Shown here: positions 1 to 39,466 of the stretch, piece by piece
Position numbering within the stretch: position 1 is the first letter of the stretch
Layout: every line of letters starts with the position of its first letter
Origin: a virus
Taxonomy: Duplodnaviria; Heunggongvirae; Uroviricota; Caudoviricetes
Strand: one strand, 5' to 3'
Length of the DNA: 39,466 bases
IMG/VR virus record: IMGVR_UViG_2531839252_000006
Notes under the pieces: generated by a model
Told to the model about the DNA's origin: nothing
The model's input: only the letters and a program-made list of their open reading frames with translations
Databases searched by the model: none
Translations under genes and position numbers: made by a program

Positions 1-711
1 ATGAAAATTAGAAAAGTTGTTTTAACAAAAGCAGAGAAGTATTCTGATGAAATGGGTAATGAGATCCAGTACGAAGGTAGTTGTGACGTCAAACTAATTC
101 AGTTTAGAGGATCTAATAATAAACTTATCATTCATAAAGATGCATCATTAAAATATTTTGAGATATATTTTGACTGCAACAATGGGTATTTTGAAATTGG
201 CCCATGCCATATCGCAAACAAAGGTATACAAGCCCATATAAGAGTGGGTGAGAATTCCTCCATAAAAATAGGCTCTGATTTCACTTGCACTGGTAAAGGT
301 ATGATTTCTGCTGTAGAAAACTCAAGCATAATTATTGGCGATGACTGCATGTTTTCAAGTGGAAATGAAGTTAAAACTGATGACTCCCACCCTATTTTTA
401 GTGTAGTAACAGGTGAACGTATAAATATGCCAAAATCTATTTATATTGGAAGTCATGTCTGGGTTGGCCGCCGAGCGGCAATACTTGGTGGTGCAGAAAT
501 CGAAAGTGGTAGTGTTATTGGCTATGCAGCTGTTGTTAAAGGACACGTCCCAAATAACTCTATTGCAGCAGGAGTTCCAGCAAGAGTAATAAAAAAAGAC
601 ATTGCCTGGGAAAGACCTCATCTCTCCATACATAAACCTTATGTAAAGCCTAATAAGGACTCCATAAAAACCACAAGTGAATATTGGAACCTAACAAAAG
701 AAAAACAATAA
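1..711 (+). CDS. Hexapeptide-repeat (left-handed beta-helix) O-acetyltransferase; candidate NeuO-like polysaccharide O-acetyltransferase. The ORF starts at window base 1, so the true start may lie upstream.
   Basis: Translation shows tandem hexapeptide motifs typical of the LacA/NodL/CysE acyltransferase family (IGDDCMF, IYIGSHVWVGRRAAILGGAEIESGSVIGYAAVV, AAGVPARVI). It is convergent with the tailspike gene. The region looks AT-rich by eye. Confidence 0.75.
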   Translation: MKIRKVVLTKAEKYSDEMGNEIQYEGSCDVKLIQFRGSNNKLIIHKDASLKYFEIYFDCNNGYFEIGPCHIANKGIQAHIRVGENSSIKIGSDFTCTGKGMISAVENSSIIIGDDCMFSSGNEVKTDDSHPIFSVVTGERINMPKSIYIGSHVWVGRRAAILGGAEIESGSVIGYAAVVKGHVPNNSIAAGVPARVIKKDIAWERPHLSIHKPYVKPNKDSIKTTSEYWNLTKEKQ

Positions 712-745
712 AAACACACCATATATTGAACGACAAGTAAATCAC

Positions 746-784
746 ATGTCACTCCTAGAATGCGGTATCTTTAAGGAGTGACAT
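746..784. terminator. Inverted repeat (11-bp stems atgtcactcct / aggagtgacat, 17-nt loop) between the convergent acetyltransferase and tailspike genes; possible bidirectional terminator, but no clear U-tract.
   Basis: Seen directly in the sequence at 746-756 and 774-784. Confidence 0.3.
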
Positions 785-866
785 TTATCTATAACAAATT
801 ACTAAAACACCCAAAAAACATAGACTTCAATTGGTAATATTGAGACTTAAGGTGTCAGTAAAATAG

Positions 867-3599
867 TTAATTTGCAAGCTTATTTTCCAGTTCTTCAATC
901 CTCTTTATAATATTTTTCTGACGTATACCTAATGCAGCAATCATTAGATACTGTAATTCATCATTTCTGAATGCATAGCGTTCTCCTGCTTCATGCGTAA
1001 TAGTTATAGCCTCACGAACAAGGTTACCTTCATCATCATAAACAGCTGGATCTGTATCTGTATATGCATCCCATCTGTCATAGCAGATCGCTCCGTATTT
1101 AAATGGATCAAGTCCATTCTCTCTGAATATTTCCATTGCCCGTTGCACCGTAAGTCCGGCATGAAGTCTGGCATCAGCTCCCTTATTTTTTACACTATCA
1201 AGCCATTGATAAAAACCAATTTCATCAACAAGAGCTAACCCAACCGCCTGCTCTTTATCGGAAAGAGTTCTGACTTCCGTTTTCTCTGTTGCATCAGATG
1301 TATTTATAGTTGCAGTCCCTGCGTAGACCTGAGAAAAGCGGTTAACGGACCTTCCAAGTGATACCTGGTTATCAGTTGTTGGCCTTAATGTCGTCGTCGC
1401 CCATGTCGATGTAGTATCTTTAGTCGCAGAAAATACTGTTACATTCCCCTGCTTAAGTCTGACGACACCTCCATCTGTAGAGGCAAGTATCAACTCACCA
1501 GCCGCAGATGGACAATCAGCAGCATGGATATCAATATAAGCACCACCCGCAGTATTCCCATCTTTAGAACGGAACTGCATACCTCGAAAGTTTGAGTCGA
1601 ATACTGCTTTCGTACTTACCCATGAATTATTGTCATGTCCGTAATCTGTATCAAACAGGTTAAGGTTATTTCCATAATTCAACTCGAGGGATTTGGTATA
1701 CTCTCCAATGGCTTCGTCAAATATCGCAATAGTAAATGAACCGTGCTCACGGTTAAAGGCGATATCAGTTCCAGCATAATATTGATGCGCGGTTCCGGTA
1801 TACGGATCGGATTCTGCACCATGCACTGGATGGTTGCCAAGAATATCAGACAGGTTTGCTATTCCAAACAGATGCTTATTTCTGCGAGTATAATCACCTG
1901 ATTTATATGTTGCGCCTGAATCCCATTCACCACTTGTCGCTGCAAGCGATGTTTTTAACCAATAAGACCTGTTTGTCGGAAGATTTCCCTTGTTATCACC
2001 AGTAACAATACTTACCCAATTTTTACCACGATGGCTTACAACATCCCCTGCGCTTTTCCATACATCCATAGCACCACAGACAAGTTCATCACCTCTTATT
2101 GCCAGCCCTTCAGGCTCAAAGCTAACCGGAACTCCGATTTTAGAGTCAGAACCATTTAACTGAGTCTCTGTATAAAGTGATGCGGCAAGTGATACAGGAA
2201 ATGAACGTATTAGCGTACCACCCATATCATAAATCTGTACTGTCCTTACGCATCTTGCAGGAACGCCACCCCAAATTGTGTAAATATATCTGCTATCTGA
2301 TGTAATACCCTGAAGTGTTGCACCATACTGACCTTTACCACGGACAAGTGGAACAGGACCATTAATCGGTCTAACTTTCATTGGGTTAGAAGAAGATTCC
2401 ACTTCTTTGCGATCATATACGTATAAAAAGCGGCCAGTCCCAGCGTTTGATGTCGCAATTAATATGACATATCGCCCATCATTAGATACACAAATACTTG
2501 CCCGCTGCGCAAGGTTAATCAGATTATTATCACCCGGCTCACCAAATACTCGGTAATGAGTTATATCTTCAGCAGATGTTGATGCCCCTTTCCATTTTGT
2601 CTTTGAATACCCCTTCCCTCCTAGAGAGGAACCAGTCTCAGCAATTGTTGTTGTAAACAGATATAGTTCACCGTTCTCTATTGTGGCAGAAAGATCTGAA
2701 CCGTGACCAAGAGGCAATGGCTCTGTAAATGTCACAACATAAAGAGTTGAACCATCGCTTGTATAGTGCCACTCACTGATCCTTGTGAGGGTGTCCGTTC
2801 CCCAGTTAGAACCTCCAACCTGTTGAGTGATAAAAACCTTCTCAATACCTTCATGCCTTACACAAGCTATTCCCTGCAATGCATTTTGTGCATTCGCATA
2901 TATAGTTGGCGCATTGATATCATCACCAAAATTCAGGGTCGCAAGTTTTCTTTGTCCAATGGAGAAACTTTGCATCGGCGGATTAACAGAAATGCGAACA
3001 CCATTACTGATTAGAACACCATCACCGGAGAAGCGTGAAATATCTATTTTCGATGCATCAACTATAAACTCACCAGAAGGCACATGAACCAAACCACTAT
3101 TTCCTGCGCTAGATGCGGCGTCAAGAAAAGCCTGTGTTGAATCTCTATTCGCAGAGTCATCCGCCCCCCACCCGCGAACGTCTTTATCATCCCGCCATCG
3201 TGCAATCTGTAATTCAGGGTATTTTTTAGCACCATCAGGATCTTCTAATTGCTGCCGTAACTGATCCGGGTCATACTTCAGCACATTCGGAAAATAGAAC
3301 TGCTGCGTACCATAAGCATCGTACACAGCCATAGAGTGTCCTTTCACAGTAACGAATTTGGCAATCTGTCCGTTATATACAGGATATCCAGCAGCATTGA
3401 TAACGATTGGTTGCGAAACAGGAACGTGAGAACCTTCTTCATTCTCTACATAAACCTGAATCTGGTTTTCAGGATTTACAGGGTCAGTGTCAATTTTACC
3501 GATATAAATTTTGCCATTAGCTACGGCTTTAAAAGAACGAGCCATAGTGAAGAGTTGCGAAGGCATCCCAATTACAACATTTGGAGTTATATCAGGCAT
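867..3599 (-). CDS. Tailspike protein: P22 gp9-type head-binding N-terminal domain joined to a different receptor-binding domain and a C-terminal intramolecular-chaperone-like region; candidate endosialidase.
   Basis: N-terminal about 110 aa ([59 protein letters not shown] ... NVLKYDPDQ) match the remembered P22/Sf6/HK620 tailspike head-binding domain. Asp-box-like motifs ([16 protein letters not shown]) sit in the middle. The C-terminus ([10 protein letters not shown] ... [13 protein letters not shown]) resembles peptidase S74 chaperone domains. The long ORF extends to 3752, but the start was chosen at the ATG at 3599 with AGGA 8 nt upstream; ATG 3608 is an alternative. Confidence 0.8.
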
Positions 3600-3933
3600 A
3601 TTAGTCATCCTGTTTGAAAATTTAGATATTGAAGAAAACGGAATGACTGCAGACAAAGATGCAATTGTTTTGAAAAATAATCTTCTATTCACTTTAAAAC
3701 TATGCAACATGAACAAAACAATTATTTTACAACAAACAAGAATCTTGATCAACAGACATATGCTTTATGCGTTTAATGCGTCATTTAAAAATAACAAGTA
3801 CTACTTTTATTCCTATCGTCCATGATTTTCATTTTCAAATATTATTAAATAACAATTCCTATTTATAATATCTGTCATTTAATTTGCTCCAGATACAAGG
3901 AATCGCCGCAGCATGGCTACGGTGAATTTTGGG

Positions 3934-5469: not shown

Positions 5470-5889
5470 TTAGTCTTGCTTTGTTGATGGTATAAGAGAT
5501 GCGTTTGCCTCTTTTGGCTTCAAGGTATACATCCCACCATTAAAAGGATCTACAGCAAGCCAACCAATTAACCCACCAAACACAAGGTTTCCACCAATAT
5601 ACCAGCCATTAGCATTGGCTTTGATTGGCAGGGTAACTGGTTCGTACCCATCCTTTTCCATAGTGATCTGGTAGCTCTTTTTGCCAAAATAACTACCATC
5701 TGACTTGGCAAGAGTTACTCCTTGTGGGGTCTTACCTTGCGCAACAATCACGCCTGATTCGTCTTTTACCTTAAAGCTCGCACCGGAAGGATTGCTGTTC
5801 ACTTGCACAAGCTGCGTTTCGTCACCAACAATAGTTGCGCACCCAGATAACAATATAGCGCCAGCAACGACGCCAATAATCCTCTTCAT
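5470..5889 (-). CDS. Predicted lipoprotein of unknown function (moron at the P22 sieA position).
   Basis: Start chosen at MKRIIGVVAGAILLSGC: signal peptide with lipobox LSGC. Glycine-rich C-terminal segment. Lies between immI and the ejection-protein genes. Confidence 0.6.
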   Translation of the reverse strand: MKRIIGVVAGAILLSGCATIVGDETQLVQVNSNPSGASFKVKDESGVIVAQGKTPQGVTLAKSDGSYFGKKSYQITMEKDGYEPVTLPIKANANGWYIGGNLVFGGLIGWLAVDPFNGGMYTLKPKEANASLIPSTKQD

Positions 5890-6006
5890 ATCAATTTCCA
5901 TATTTAAAAAACCGGAAACATCCTAATGACAAACCATTCAAATGTGAAGTAGGCAAAAGATGTTTACTTTTTTCATGGTATCCTGCTCAAAACTAAGGAG
6001 GTTGGC

Positions 6007-38069: not shown

Positions 38070-38300
38070 ATGACAATCAATATTCAGCCGATTCTAATAA
38101 ACCGCGAGCGTGTTCAGGAGATGCTTGGTGGTATCTCCAGAACTACTTTTTACCGGAAGCGTAAACAGTGGGAGCAATCAGGGACACCATTCCCTCGGGA
38201 AGTGGAAGAAATCCACCCACCGAAAGGCGGCGCCCTCTTTCGCTACAAGGAAGTTATTCAGTTTTGCAAAGATAAAGGATTGATTTCCGAACACTCTTGA
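38070..38300 (+). CDS. xis: AlpA-family DNA-binding protein; putative excisionase.
   Basis: Small helix-turn-helix protein (LINRERVQEMLGGISRTTFYRKRK) adjacent to the integrase; convergent with it and overlapping by 43 bp. Confidence 0.55.
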   Translation: MTINIQPILINRERVQEMLGGISRTTFYRKRKQWEQSGTPFPREVEEIHPPKGGALFRYKEVIQFCKDKGLISEHS

Positions 38301-39466
38301 ATTTTCTTAGCCCATAATTCTGCTGCGTCCTGCTGCTCGGGGATGTAGTCATACTGGTCATAAACAGCCAGCATCCCCGTGAGTTTATGCCCGAGAATTT
38401 TCTCCGAAACATGAGGTGCTACTCCAAGTTCAGCCATTTTTGTTTTGCACGTTCTGCGCAGATCGTGCAATGACCAGTGCTCGCCCCCCATAACATCTTC
38501 TACCTGTTCTGCAATAGAAATTAGGGTGCTGGCAGACATTGGGCGATTTTCCTGTAACTTAGCCGGAGGAAATACGATTGACAGATCAGGGTATAGATCA
38601 AATACCTGCTGCAAATAATCTGCTGCGAGTTTTGAAATACCGCGAACAAATCGCTTACGCGTTTTTGAGTTCTCTTTCGGTATAGTCCATTCTCTAGACT
38701 TCAGATCAAAATCAGTCTTCTTAGCCAACCGCAATTCAACACCACGACAACCAGTTAACGCAACAATTCGAATAAACATTTTGTTTTGCCACGACATTTT
38801 CGTTTTGTCGATGGCATTCCAGAATGCGCCTATCTCAACATCGTTAAGAAAACGTTCGCCATTATTAGGTCTACTGCCGATATCATTAATCTCAAGAAGC
38901 ATCAGTGCATTTGATGTTATGCGTTTTCTGCGTAACGCATAGCGGATCACTTGCTTCATCTTCACCAGTACATTTCCCGCCTGTACGGGTGACCCACCTT
39001 TTGTTATGCGAATGAATATTTGCTCCCACTCTACAGGACTCATTTCATCTGCAATCAGCTTACCGTAATTGTCGGTGATGTGAAGTTTCAGCATCCGCTT
39101 CCAGTATTCGTACTTCACCATCTCTTTTACTGAAGGAGTATCAAACCACTCGTCAACTAGGGTACTGATGCTTGGGGAACTTGATGCAATATCTTTGGCT
39201 TTCTTCCTTTGCATGGCTGGGTCTTTACCCTTCTCCAACCACCCTTTACACTCTTCCAATGCATCGCGAGCTTCCTTAAGCGACATCTTCCCGTACGTTC
39301 CGAGCTTTAACCTGGCGGGTTTTCCATTGAAACGATAGCGGTATTGAAAGGTGATAAGTCCCTTCGGGCTGATCCTGACAGAAAGTCCGCCTCCGTCAGC
39401 TATCTCCTCAGGTCCCTCATATGCTTTTCCGGATATACGTCGCAGCTTTGTATCGTTGAGTGCCAT
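38258..39466 (-). CDS. int: Tyrosine integrase (P4-type, arm-binding N-terminus); its start coincides with the window end, so the true start and the att site may lie beyond it.
   Basis: C-terminal catalytic motifs HDLRRTCKTKMAELG ... LGHKLTGMLAVYDQYDY; N-terminus GGGLSVRISPKGLITFQYRYRFNGKPARLKLGTYG is typical of P4-like integrases. Confidence 0.9.
   Translation of the reverse strand: MALNDTKLRRISGKAYEGPEEIADGGGLSVRISPKGLITFQYRYRFNGKPARLKLGTYGKMSLKEARDALEECKGWLEKGKDPAMQRKKAKDIASSSPSISTLVDEWFDTPSVKEMVKYEYWKRMLKLHITDNYGKLIADEMSPVEWEQIFIRITKGGSPVQAGNVLVKMKQVIRYALRRKRITSNALMLLEINDIGSRPNNGERFLNDVEIGAFWNAIDKTKMSWQNKMFIRIVALTGCRGVELRLAKKTDFDLKSREWTIPKENSKTRKRFVRGISKLAADYLQQVFDLYPDLSIVFPPAKLQENRPMSASTLISIAEQVEDVMGGEHWSLHDLRRTCKTKMAELGVAPHVSEKILGHKLTGMLAVYDQYDYIPEQQDAAELWAKKIQECSEINPLSLQN

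Follow-up and report, generated by a model that had tools for sequence, protein, structure and literature searches.

Does the acyltransferase gene beside the tailspike of a P22-like prophage encode a second NeuO, the polysialic acid O-acetyltransferase carried by prophage CUS-3 in Escherichia coli K1, or does it act on another polymer of its host? The 39,466-nucleotide stretch of viral DNA analyzed here (the window) raises this question at its first position. A preliminary description, made from the letters of the window, had read the gene found there as a NeuO-like enzyme for O-acetylation of a capsule or O antigen, possibly with a phase-variable repeat tract hidden just upstream.

Gene, spacer, and prophage borders

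The gene at positions 1 to 711 (plus strand) is an intact ORF of 236 aa with an ATG start in the ORF listing of the window, and its product matches the Pfam family Hexapep (PF00132; E = 5.8e-07, above the gathering score), as expected of the hexapeptide-repeat acyltransferase first proposed. The impression that the segment is AT rich was also correct: GC content is 36.1% in the ORF and 31.6% in the spacer at 712 to 866, versus 42.4% in the tailspike gene and 47.4% in the remainder of the window. The tailspike gene at 867 to 3599 (minus strand) faces the acetyltransferase ORF, so that the two are convergent, as described. Within the 155-bp spacer that separates the two convergent stop codons lies an inverted repeat, ATGTCACTCCT...AAGGAGTGACAT (746 to 784), with 14 paired positions per arm (an 11-bp outer helix, a 3-nt bulge, and a 3-bp inner helix). 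In an RNA fold of positions 705 to 870 this element folds better than shuffled sequence (z = −2.2), and it was not called by a consensus terminator scan; a function as a bidirectional terminator is plausible.

Consensus scanning for promoters and terminators around the acetyltransferase gene gave no excess over shuffled sequence and called no upstream site; no sigma-70 consensus promoter upstream of the gene passed the scan, and no Shine-Dalgarno sequence is recognizable before the ATG. By eye, a weak TTGCAT-17-TAAATT is seen about 40 bp 5′ of the ATG, and it is not relied on here. Two poly-C tracts lie at −127 and −84.

The window corresponds to a P22-like prophage trimmed at a gene start on either side. 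It runs from the acetyltransferase ATG, correctly recognized as the window start, to the ATG of a tyrosine integrase gene at the opposite prophage end (38258 to 39466, minus strand, ATG at 39466; Arm-DNA-bind_3 and Phage_integrase domains). Its content is P22-like: a Head_binding tailspike, gp16, gp7, ant/arc/mnt, P22-type virion genes, and int. In all 11 E. coli loci that were read, 373 bp separate the acetyltransferase gene from the start of thrS, from which it diverges, and the prophage is integrated upstream of thrS. In strain E4, the copies of a 107-bp imperfect direct repeat (89% identity) lie outside both window ends, one 239 to 345 bp upstream of position 1 and the other 181 to 286 bp past the integrase ATG. 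Because this att repeat flanks both the acetyltransferase gene and the integrase gene, the former and its upstream region are prophage DNA; the enzyme gene belongs to the tailspike end of the prophage, with the tailspike on one side of it and the att site on the other. The suggested placement beside the tailspike of a P22-like phage is therefore right, and the analogy drawn to the position of neuO in CUS-3 survives in part. Both genes adjoin a tailspike, but neuO is codirectional with its tailspike and next to int, whereas here the arrangement is convergent and int is at the far end.

Protein family, predicted fold, and active site

Searching the PDB with phmmer ranked NeuO first among solved relatives (3JQY; E = 2.7e-32, 38.5% identity) and OatWY second (E = 5e-25, about 30% identity), with maltose and galactoside acetyltransferases far weaker at about 1e-13 (6e-14 or weaker). 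The expectation that a protein search against NeuO and other left-handed beta-helix (LbH) enzymes would favor NeuO was thus upheld among solved proteins. An AF2 monomer model (pLDDT, 93.5) consists of all-beta coils, and Foldseek searches with it gave NeuO (3jqy; E = 3e-11, TM 0.64 to 0.69) and then OatWY (2wl*; E = 2e-10), each with a probability of 1.0, and all others at 6e-6 or weaker, the same ranking of solved relatives as that from phmmer. Among the named families of NCBIfam, none reaches its curated cutoff for this protein; the best scores were for maltose acetyltransferase (56 bits; cutoff, 314), WbbJ (54; 243), and galactoside acetyltransferase (51; 347).

The structural study of NeuO identified six active-site residues common to NeuO and OatWY, which in NeuO numbering are Met134, His147, Trp171, Arg174, Trp220, and Arg222 (PMC3046976). 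In the phmmer alignment this set corresponds to M117, H130, W154, R157, W203, and R205, so that all six are present, and M117, H130, W154, W203, and R205 are invariant among 24 homologs. NeuO Arg137, the proposed oxyanion residue, is replaced by Ser120 in the prophage enzyme. Sequence and predicted fold place the protein in the NeuO/OatWY branch of the LbH O-acetyltransferases. It is not a neuO ortholog: identity to NeuO is 38.5% and dozens of closer, uncharacterized relatives are found at 45 to 64%.

Absence of a NeuO-type phase switch

In CUS-3, the heptanucleotide tract of neuO begins 5 nt after the ATG and lies inside the ORF, as ATG-TT-(AAGACTC)19. The acetyltransferase ORF of the window begins ATGAAAATTAGAAAAGTT, without the repeat. 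This removes the idea of a tract concealed by the window edge, since a neuO-type tract sits within the ORF and would have shown in the window. The sequence was nevertheless extended upstream of position 1, where a look for AAGACTC repeats had been suggested; the 370 to 400 bp upstream of the ORF in 11 genomes contained neither AAGACTC nor any other tandem repeat. Tandem Repeats Finder (TRF), run on the ORF together with 600 bp of upstream and 289 bp of downstream sequence, detected no tandem repeat, a pattern search with AAGACTCAAGACTC on the ORF and its flanks gave no match, and the protein has neither N-terminal RLKTQDS heptads nor a poly-psi domain. The NeuO-type phase switch is absent, and no heptanucleotide repeat turns expression on and off.

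A tailspike with a predicted propeller

Counted from the RefSeq start, the tailspike (867 to 3599, minus strand) has 910 aa; the mechanical ORF extends to 3752. It comprises a P22-type head-binding domain (3255 to 3599, minus strand; PF09008 Head_binding, E = 9e-65), a receptor-binding or depolymerase part predicted from AF2 and Foldseek to be a beta-propeller (1410 to 3242, minus strand), and a C-terminal intramolecular chaperone (1113 to 1298, minus strand; Peptidase_S74, PF13884, E = 2e-07). DNA-level similarity to the tailspikes of CUS-3, Sf6, and HK620 is confined to the head-binding domain, for which the PDB matches were the Sf6 and P22 N-domains; those of the Peptidase_S74 domain were the chaperone domains of the T5 L-shaped fiber, endoNF, and phi29 gp12. 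For the receptor part, sequence searching of the PDB found no solved relative. Nor did Pfam find the endosialidase domains PF12217, PF12218, and PF12195 anywhere in the tailspike.

The tailspike model (pLDDT, 75) matched best, by Foldseek, the receptor-binding proteins of Staphylococcus aureus phages phi11, 80alpha, P68, and NF5 (E = 1e-9 to 1e-10; TM 0.31 to 0.41). The receptor-binding proteins of phi11 and its relatives bind wall teichoic acid, and the likeness of the modeled tailspike to these propeller proteins is suggestive. A CUS-3-like endosialidase partner for the acetyltransferase is contradicted both by the domain content and by this fold match.

An E. coli P22-like tailspike paralog (36% identity) was found in 44 genomes; no fewer than 35 of these fall among the 61 genomes with a K24-type capsule region 2, a type assigned by gene lengths and domains (a TagF-like protein of 396 aa and a TPR protein of 385 aa); the set includes the O83 strains LF82 and NRG857C. 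Because the paralog is concentrated in K24-type genomes, the tailspike family tracks CDP-glycerol-type capsules. The acetyltransferase is absent beside this K24-associated paralog and beside a tailspike homolog in a Mu-like prophage. These two other phages lack the enzyme, and it is therefore not obligatory for phages with such a tailspike fold. In an unrelated prophage, a 64% identical acetyltransferase homolog is again convergent with a tailspike, which is 32% identical; in the 11 E. coli loci, the acetyltransferase and tailspike genes are always next to each other, with identities of 99.3% or more, and the remaining prophage is mosaic. The pair moves as a cassette.

Distribution and host capsule

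The first 900 bases of the window are present at ≥99.3% identity in 5 of 5,426 complete E. coli genomes, and the exact acetyltransferase protein is encoded on 358 public-assembly contigs; the index places it in 717 collection blocks, and about 700 public assemblies carry the gene. Strains E4, EC24, and MS 16-3 are among the lysogens. This breadth bears on the idea that the lysogen makes no use of the gene, which would be a mere passenger, silent or in decay. The lack of a recognizable Shine-Dalgarno sequence and of a promoter passing the scan would fit such a gene, but the ORF is unbroken and almost every copy of it is identical, the catalytic residues have been retained, and the copy in the GMF065 prophage remnant has only 2 synonymous changes and 1 nonsynonymous change. 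We regard a mere passenger as highly improbable.

Host strain E4 carries a group 2 kps locus between yghD and pheV. Its region 2 encodes a 131-aa cytidylyltransferase (TagD/GCT-like; CDP-glycerol), a 369-aa TagF/CpsA-like glycerophosphotransferase, a 701-aa protein with TPR and KpsS-family parts, and a 294-aa GT8 protein. This 5-kb region is found full-length at ≥99.9% identity in exactly 5 of the 5,426 complete genomes, and these are the same five that carry the acetyltransferase (hypergeometric P = 2.6e-17, a value that ignores relatedness); the other four hosts match E4 there at 99.9 to 100%. The carriers represent at least two core backgrounds and are not one clone (thrS-pheT divergence of 0% versus 1.3 to 1.5%). 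The five-of-five co-occurrence rests on few lineages and could partly reflect shared ancestry; a phage infecting only this K type could also, by itself, yield the same pattern without any action of the enzyme on the capsule.

Region 2 of E4 contains no neu genes, and the locus is not K1. The preliminary description had named polysialic acid as an acceptor to try, a choice that falls with this result and with the shared region 2 of the other four carriers. The same evidence bears on the possibility that the gene is a functional equivalent of neuO, that is, a phase-variable polysialic acid O-acetyltransferase with a K1 or K92 capsule as its acceptor. Of the solved relatives, NeuO is the closest, and neuO likewise lies beside the tailspike of a P22-like prophage in CUS-3. 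Against this, the closer homologs occur in nonsialic contexts, the tailspike is devoid of endosialidase domains, the gene possesses neither the poly-psi domain nor the AAGACTC tract, and the hosts lack neu genes in region 2. Equivalence to neuO in this sense is exceedingly improbable. What stands of the NeuO-like reading is the family, the fold, and the active-site residues; the repeat switch, the endosialidase tailspike, and the K1 host do not.

In both gene lengths and domains, region 2 agrees with K117_7 to K117_10 in kTYPr (294, 701, 369, and 131 aa). This capsule type, recently added to the catalogue, has no known structure (PMC13171606 supplements), and its kTYPr reference is NZ_JADNBZ010000002.1:172757-187575 of GCF_015551035. 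The host accessions had no match in the kTYPr supplements, and the assignment was therefore made by gene length and domain only; on that basis the host capsule is probably K117. Several other capsule types were considered and set aside. A K2a-to-K2ab conversion was rejected since region 2 of the hosts is not K2, and the K2a/K2ab difference has been ascribed to an in-locus acetyltransferase (PMC13171606). A K22-to-K18 conversion was rejected since the E4 locus is CDP-glycerol-type and not ribitol-phosphate-type, and K13, K20, and K23 were rejected as host types since those loci encode KrkA and VatD (PMC12887879).

An O-antigen target, with acetylation of the undecaprenyl-PP-linked repeat unit and serotype conversion as in P22 or Sf6, was the other half of the original proposal. 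P22-like phages usually convert O antigens, WbbJ and similar soluble LbH acetyltransferases act on O units, and the protein has weak NCBIfam similarity to WbbJ. However, the O antigens of the hosts differ (O7 in E4 and EC24, O23 in GMF065), and O7 is found in at least 95 genomes, including E. coli B, of which most (about 90 or more) lack the acetyltransferase gene. Homologs in other bacteria lie in ABC-transporter capsule loci or teichoic-type loci, and the phage O-antigen acetylases known to us are membrane Acyl_transf_3 proteins, not LbH enzymes. An O-antigen acceptor is therefore very unlikely, and of the two targets originally named, the capsule, which co-occurs with the gene in five of five genomes, is the one that the distribution favors.

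Homologs in polysaccharide loci of other species

In an Acidovorax metagenome-assembled genome (MAG), a 59% identical homolog directly follows orthologs of the cytidylyltransferase, TagF-like, and KpsS-family trio in a kps-like locus; these orthologs share 72%, 44%, and 39% identity with their E. coli counterparts. The same trio-then-homolog order is seen in an Alcaligenaceae genome, with the homologs across Acidovorax and Alcaligenaceae at 55 to 59%. A 61% homolog lies inside a K24-like capsule locus of Pusillimonas that has TagF-type genes, so that capsule loci of betaproteobacteria hold homologs at 55 to 61%, and Ewingella has a 50% homolog in a kps region 2 that also encodes a Stealth protein and a polymerase of TagF type. 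Overall, homologs of Acidovorax, Alcaligenaceae, Pusillimonas, Ewingella, and Rahnella are found inside kps-like capsule loci, those of Actinomycetota are found inside teichoic-acid-type loci (45 to 61% identity for all these relatives), and a TagF-like gene is ≤10 kb away in 32 of 80 homolog loci of other species. To judge from these sequence comparisons, the true nearest relatives of the enzyme are uncharacterized acyltransferases of polysaccharide loci. They differ from it in being encoded in cis in the polysaccharide locus, whereas the gene in the window is phage-borne.

These loci also weigh on whether the enzyme might act on something other than the capsule polymer, such as a glycerol-phosphate/Kdo intermediate (the poly-Kdo/Gro-P linker) or a small molecule (a sugar or xenobiotic), with the link to the capsule reflecting phage host range. 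The family lies within the maltose, galactoside, and xenobiotic acetyltransferase (MAT/GAT/xenobiotic acetyltransferase) superfamily, and the association data fit a K-type host range of the phage as well as they fit K-type action of the enzyme. On the other side, all named NCBIfam families score far under their cutoffs, the presence of homologs in cis by the same capsule gene orthologs in at least four unrelated bacteria points to the polymer, and the gene is intact in a decayed prophage remnant of a strain that still carries the capsule locus. We consider another acceptor unlikely.

Proposed function

We infer that the gene probably encodes a lysogenic-conversion enzyme of the NeuO/OatWY subfamily that O-acetylates the CDP-glycerol-type group 2 capsule of the host. 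It would be a moron gene of a P22-like prophage at thrS, and its product would be a soluble enzyme that depends on acetyl-CoA and is probably a trimer. If the residue roles in NeuO carry over, the base would be His130, the CoA site would be bordered by Trp154 of the adjacent subunit, and the form of the acceptor pocket would be set by Met117, Trp203, and Arg205. The reaction would take place in the cytoplasm, where acetyl-CoA would donate its acetyl group to the growing teichoic-acid-like capsule polymer ahead of export by KpsMT. The acetyl group could be placed on glycerol, hexose, or Kdo, which are indistinguishable here.

The convergent tailspike would be the adsorption and depolymerase protein for this same capsule. 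Since the tailspike would target the polymer that the enzyme modifies, acetylation would change the antigen and would probably hinder superinfecting phages, as NeuO does for K1. NeuO is reported to shield K1 strains from K1 phages (PMC9659370).

A broader reading could well be correct, and we put it forward tentatively. In it, the NeuO/OatWY family is not limited to sialic acid capsules, the prophage copy is the sole in-trans O-acetylation determinant of a teichoic-acid-like E. coli capsule (probably K117), and the acetyltransferase-tailspike cassette is mobile between phage types with CDP-glycerol-type specificity.

Comparison with known conversion systems

To our knowledge, NeuO of CUS-3 is the only characterized prophage modification of an E. 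coli capsule. A targeted full-text literature search by protein accession and topic found no paper on the acetyltransferase gene described here, which most likely represents a second, distinct prophage-borne capsule O-acetyltransferase beside NeuO, with the capsule as the presumed substrate. The two share the left-handed beta-helix (predicted here) and the Met/His/Trp/Arg/Trp/Arg active-site set, a P22-like prophage, and a position immediately next to a capsule-specific tailspike that bears an S74 chaperone, and the enzyme of the window would, like NeuO, be a soluble cytoplasmic protein acting on a capsule exported by an ABC transporter. They differ in the AAGACTC repeat and RLKTQDS heptads, which only NeuO has, and in the attachment site, which in the prophage described here is at thrS. 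The CUS-3 tailspike is an endosialidase, whereas the one in the window is of a predicted propeller type, and the NeuO acceptor is polysialic acid, whereas the host capsule locus here is CDP-glycerol-type.

OatWY (CssF) of Neisseria meningitidis W/Y (PDB 2WLC to 2WLG), the second-best solved relative, has the same active-site residues, modifies a heteropolymeric group 2-type capsule, and has no coding-repeat phase variation. In contrast to the prophage gene, it is chromosomal, is encoded in cis in the capsule locus, and has a sialic acid acceptor. The conversion systems of P22, Sf6, and epsilon15 (GtrABC and Oac) offer a parallel of another kind, in which the polysaccharide recognized by the tailspike of a prophage is modified by means of a gene at the tailspike-att end of that same prophage. 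GtrABC and Oac are membrane proteins acting on periplasmic O antigen, whereas the enzyme here is a predicted soluble LbH protein linked to a capsule.

A 2026 catalogue of E. coli capsules (kTYPr) noted that for some serotype pairs, K18/K22 among them, an acetyltransferase encoded outside the capsule locus is required (PMC13171606). The acetyltransferase described here is not the K18/K22 enzyme, but it is a concrete example of that out-of-locus class. If the broader reading is true, prophage-borne acetyltransferases would be a candidate class for such out-of-locus enzymes, including that of K18/K22 (PMC13171606). A second case beside NeuO would make phage-driven capsule conversion more general, extending it to other chemistry, to a gene without a phase switch, and to another tailspike fold. 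In silico K typing from the kps locus alone could then miss antigenic variation, and a testable pairing of enzyme, capsule, and tailspike would be at hand for a capsule type of unknown structure. Such a case would also matter to the design of vaccines and to phage therapy for encapsulated E. coli, as O-acetylation can block depolymerases and alter epitopes.

Acetyltransferase in a decayed prophage and homologues in other phages

E. coli GMF065 carries only a remnant of the prophage (locus L002, NZ_CM183923.1 2190327-2195031), in which ISEc31 truncates the tailspike and the integrase persists only as a fragment. The acetyltransferase is intact, differing by two synonymous changes and S151N, and the capsule locus common to carriers of the gene is still present. 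Because the gene remains intact in a decayed remnant of a strain that has retained this capsule locus, the arrangement hints at selection for the acetyltransferase by itself.

Homologues also occur in other phage settings. One (64%) comes from a metagenomic prophage unrelated to this one, where it converges on the gene for a 952-aa tailspike carrying an S74 chaperone domain (loci L004/L005, 10001-13546), and another (47%) occupies a P2-like prophage of Aeromonas veronii, flanked by the repressor on one side and the integrase on the other (locus L022, 10001-10690).

Capsule loci and a K24-associated tailspike

A sister capsule locus, probably kTYPr 'K122', is present in E. coli SE15 and SCU-102 (loci L024 and L025). 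Its first three region-2 genes are 94-96% identical to those of the acetyltransferase hosts, and the GT8 gives way to two proteins, one a TPR protein and the other a 555-aa glycosyltransferase. Neither genome has the acetyltransferase or the window's tailspike. The capsule loci of Acidovorax (L020, 4999-5988) and Ewingella (L037, 10811-11809) both encode a NosD/right-handed beta-helix protein, roughly 330 aa long, which lies near the acetyltransferase homologue in the former and adjoins it in the latter.

A paralogous P22-like tailspike (36% identity; locus L106, 6001-8400, from E. coli CP088722.1) was found in 44 complete genomes, almost exclusively those with a K24-type capsule locus. At least 35 of the 44 have this locus, versus 0.5 expected, including the O83 strains LF82 and NRG857C. 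This protein appears to be a prophage tailspike specific to K24, and no acetyltransferase adjoins it.

Tailspike of the window

The tailspike receptor domain (window 1410-3242, minus strand) is predicted by structural modeling to be a beta-propeller. The structures that match it best are those of receptor-binding proteins from the Staphylococcus phages phi11, 80alpha, P68, and NF5, and no known E. coli tailspike fold is among them. A mechanically called tailspike open reading frame adds 51 codons upstream of the annotated ATG, beginning at a TTG (window 3600-3752, minus strand); since the conserved head-binding domain begins exactly at the annotated start, this extension is probably untranslated.

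Prophage ends and flanking DNA

Sequence from upstream of thrS is present at both prophage ends and marks them as an imperfect direct repeat of 107 bp whose copies share 89% identity; one lies at 5656-5762 of the left-flank locus L001, the other 181-286 bp past window position 39466 (locus L023). Part of the thrS promoter region is swapped by the phage for its own copy. Within the left repeat lies a 25-bp element, AAATTGGTACACAAT(C/T)TGGTACACA, which contains TTGGTACACA twice in tandem. A diverged form lies within the right repeat, a further occurrence is found 25-49 bp past the integrase ATG, and these copies are probably integrase arm sites.

In the immI region, beside mnt/arc, a 143-aa open reading frame with a lipoprotein-type signal (…LLSGC…) and no Pfam match (window 5470-5901, minus strand) may be a further moron gene.

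Beyond the window, the phage DNA that precedes the acetyltransferase gene contains two poly-C tracts, 84 and 127 bp before position 1 (L001 5874-5880 and 5917-5924). Their lengths depend on the strain (7/8, 7/7, or 6/6) and could reflect slippage-based regulation or a sequencing artifact; the differences go with sequence lineage.
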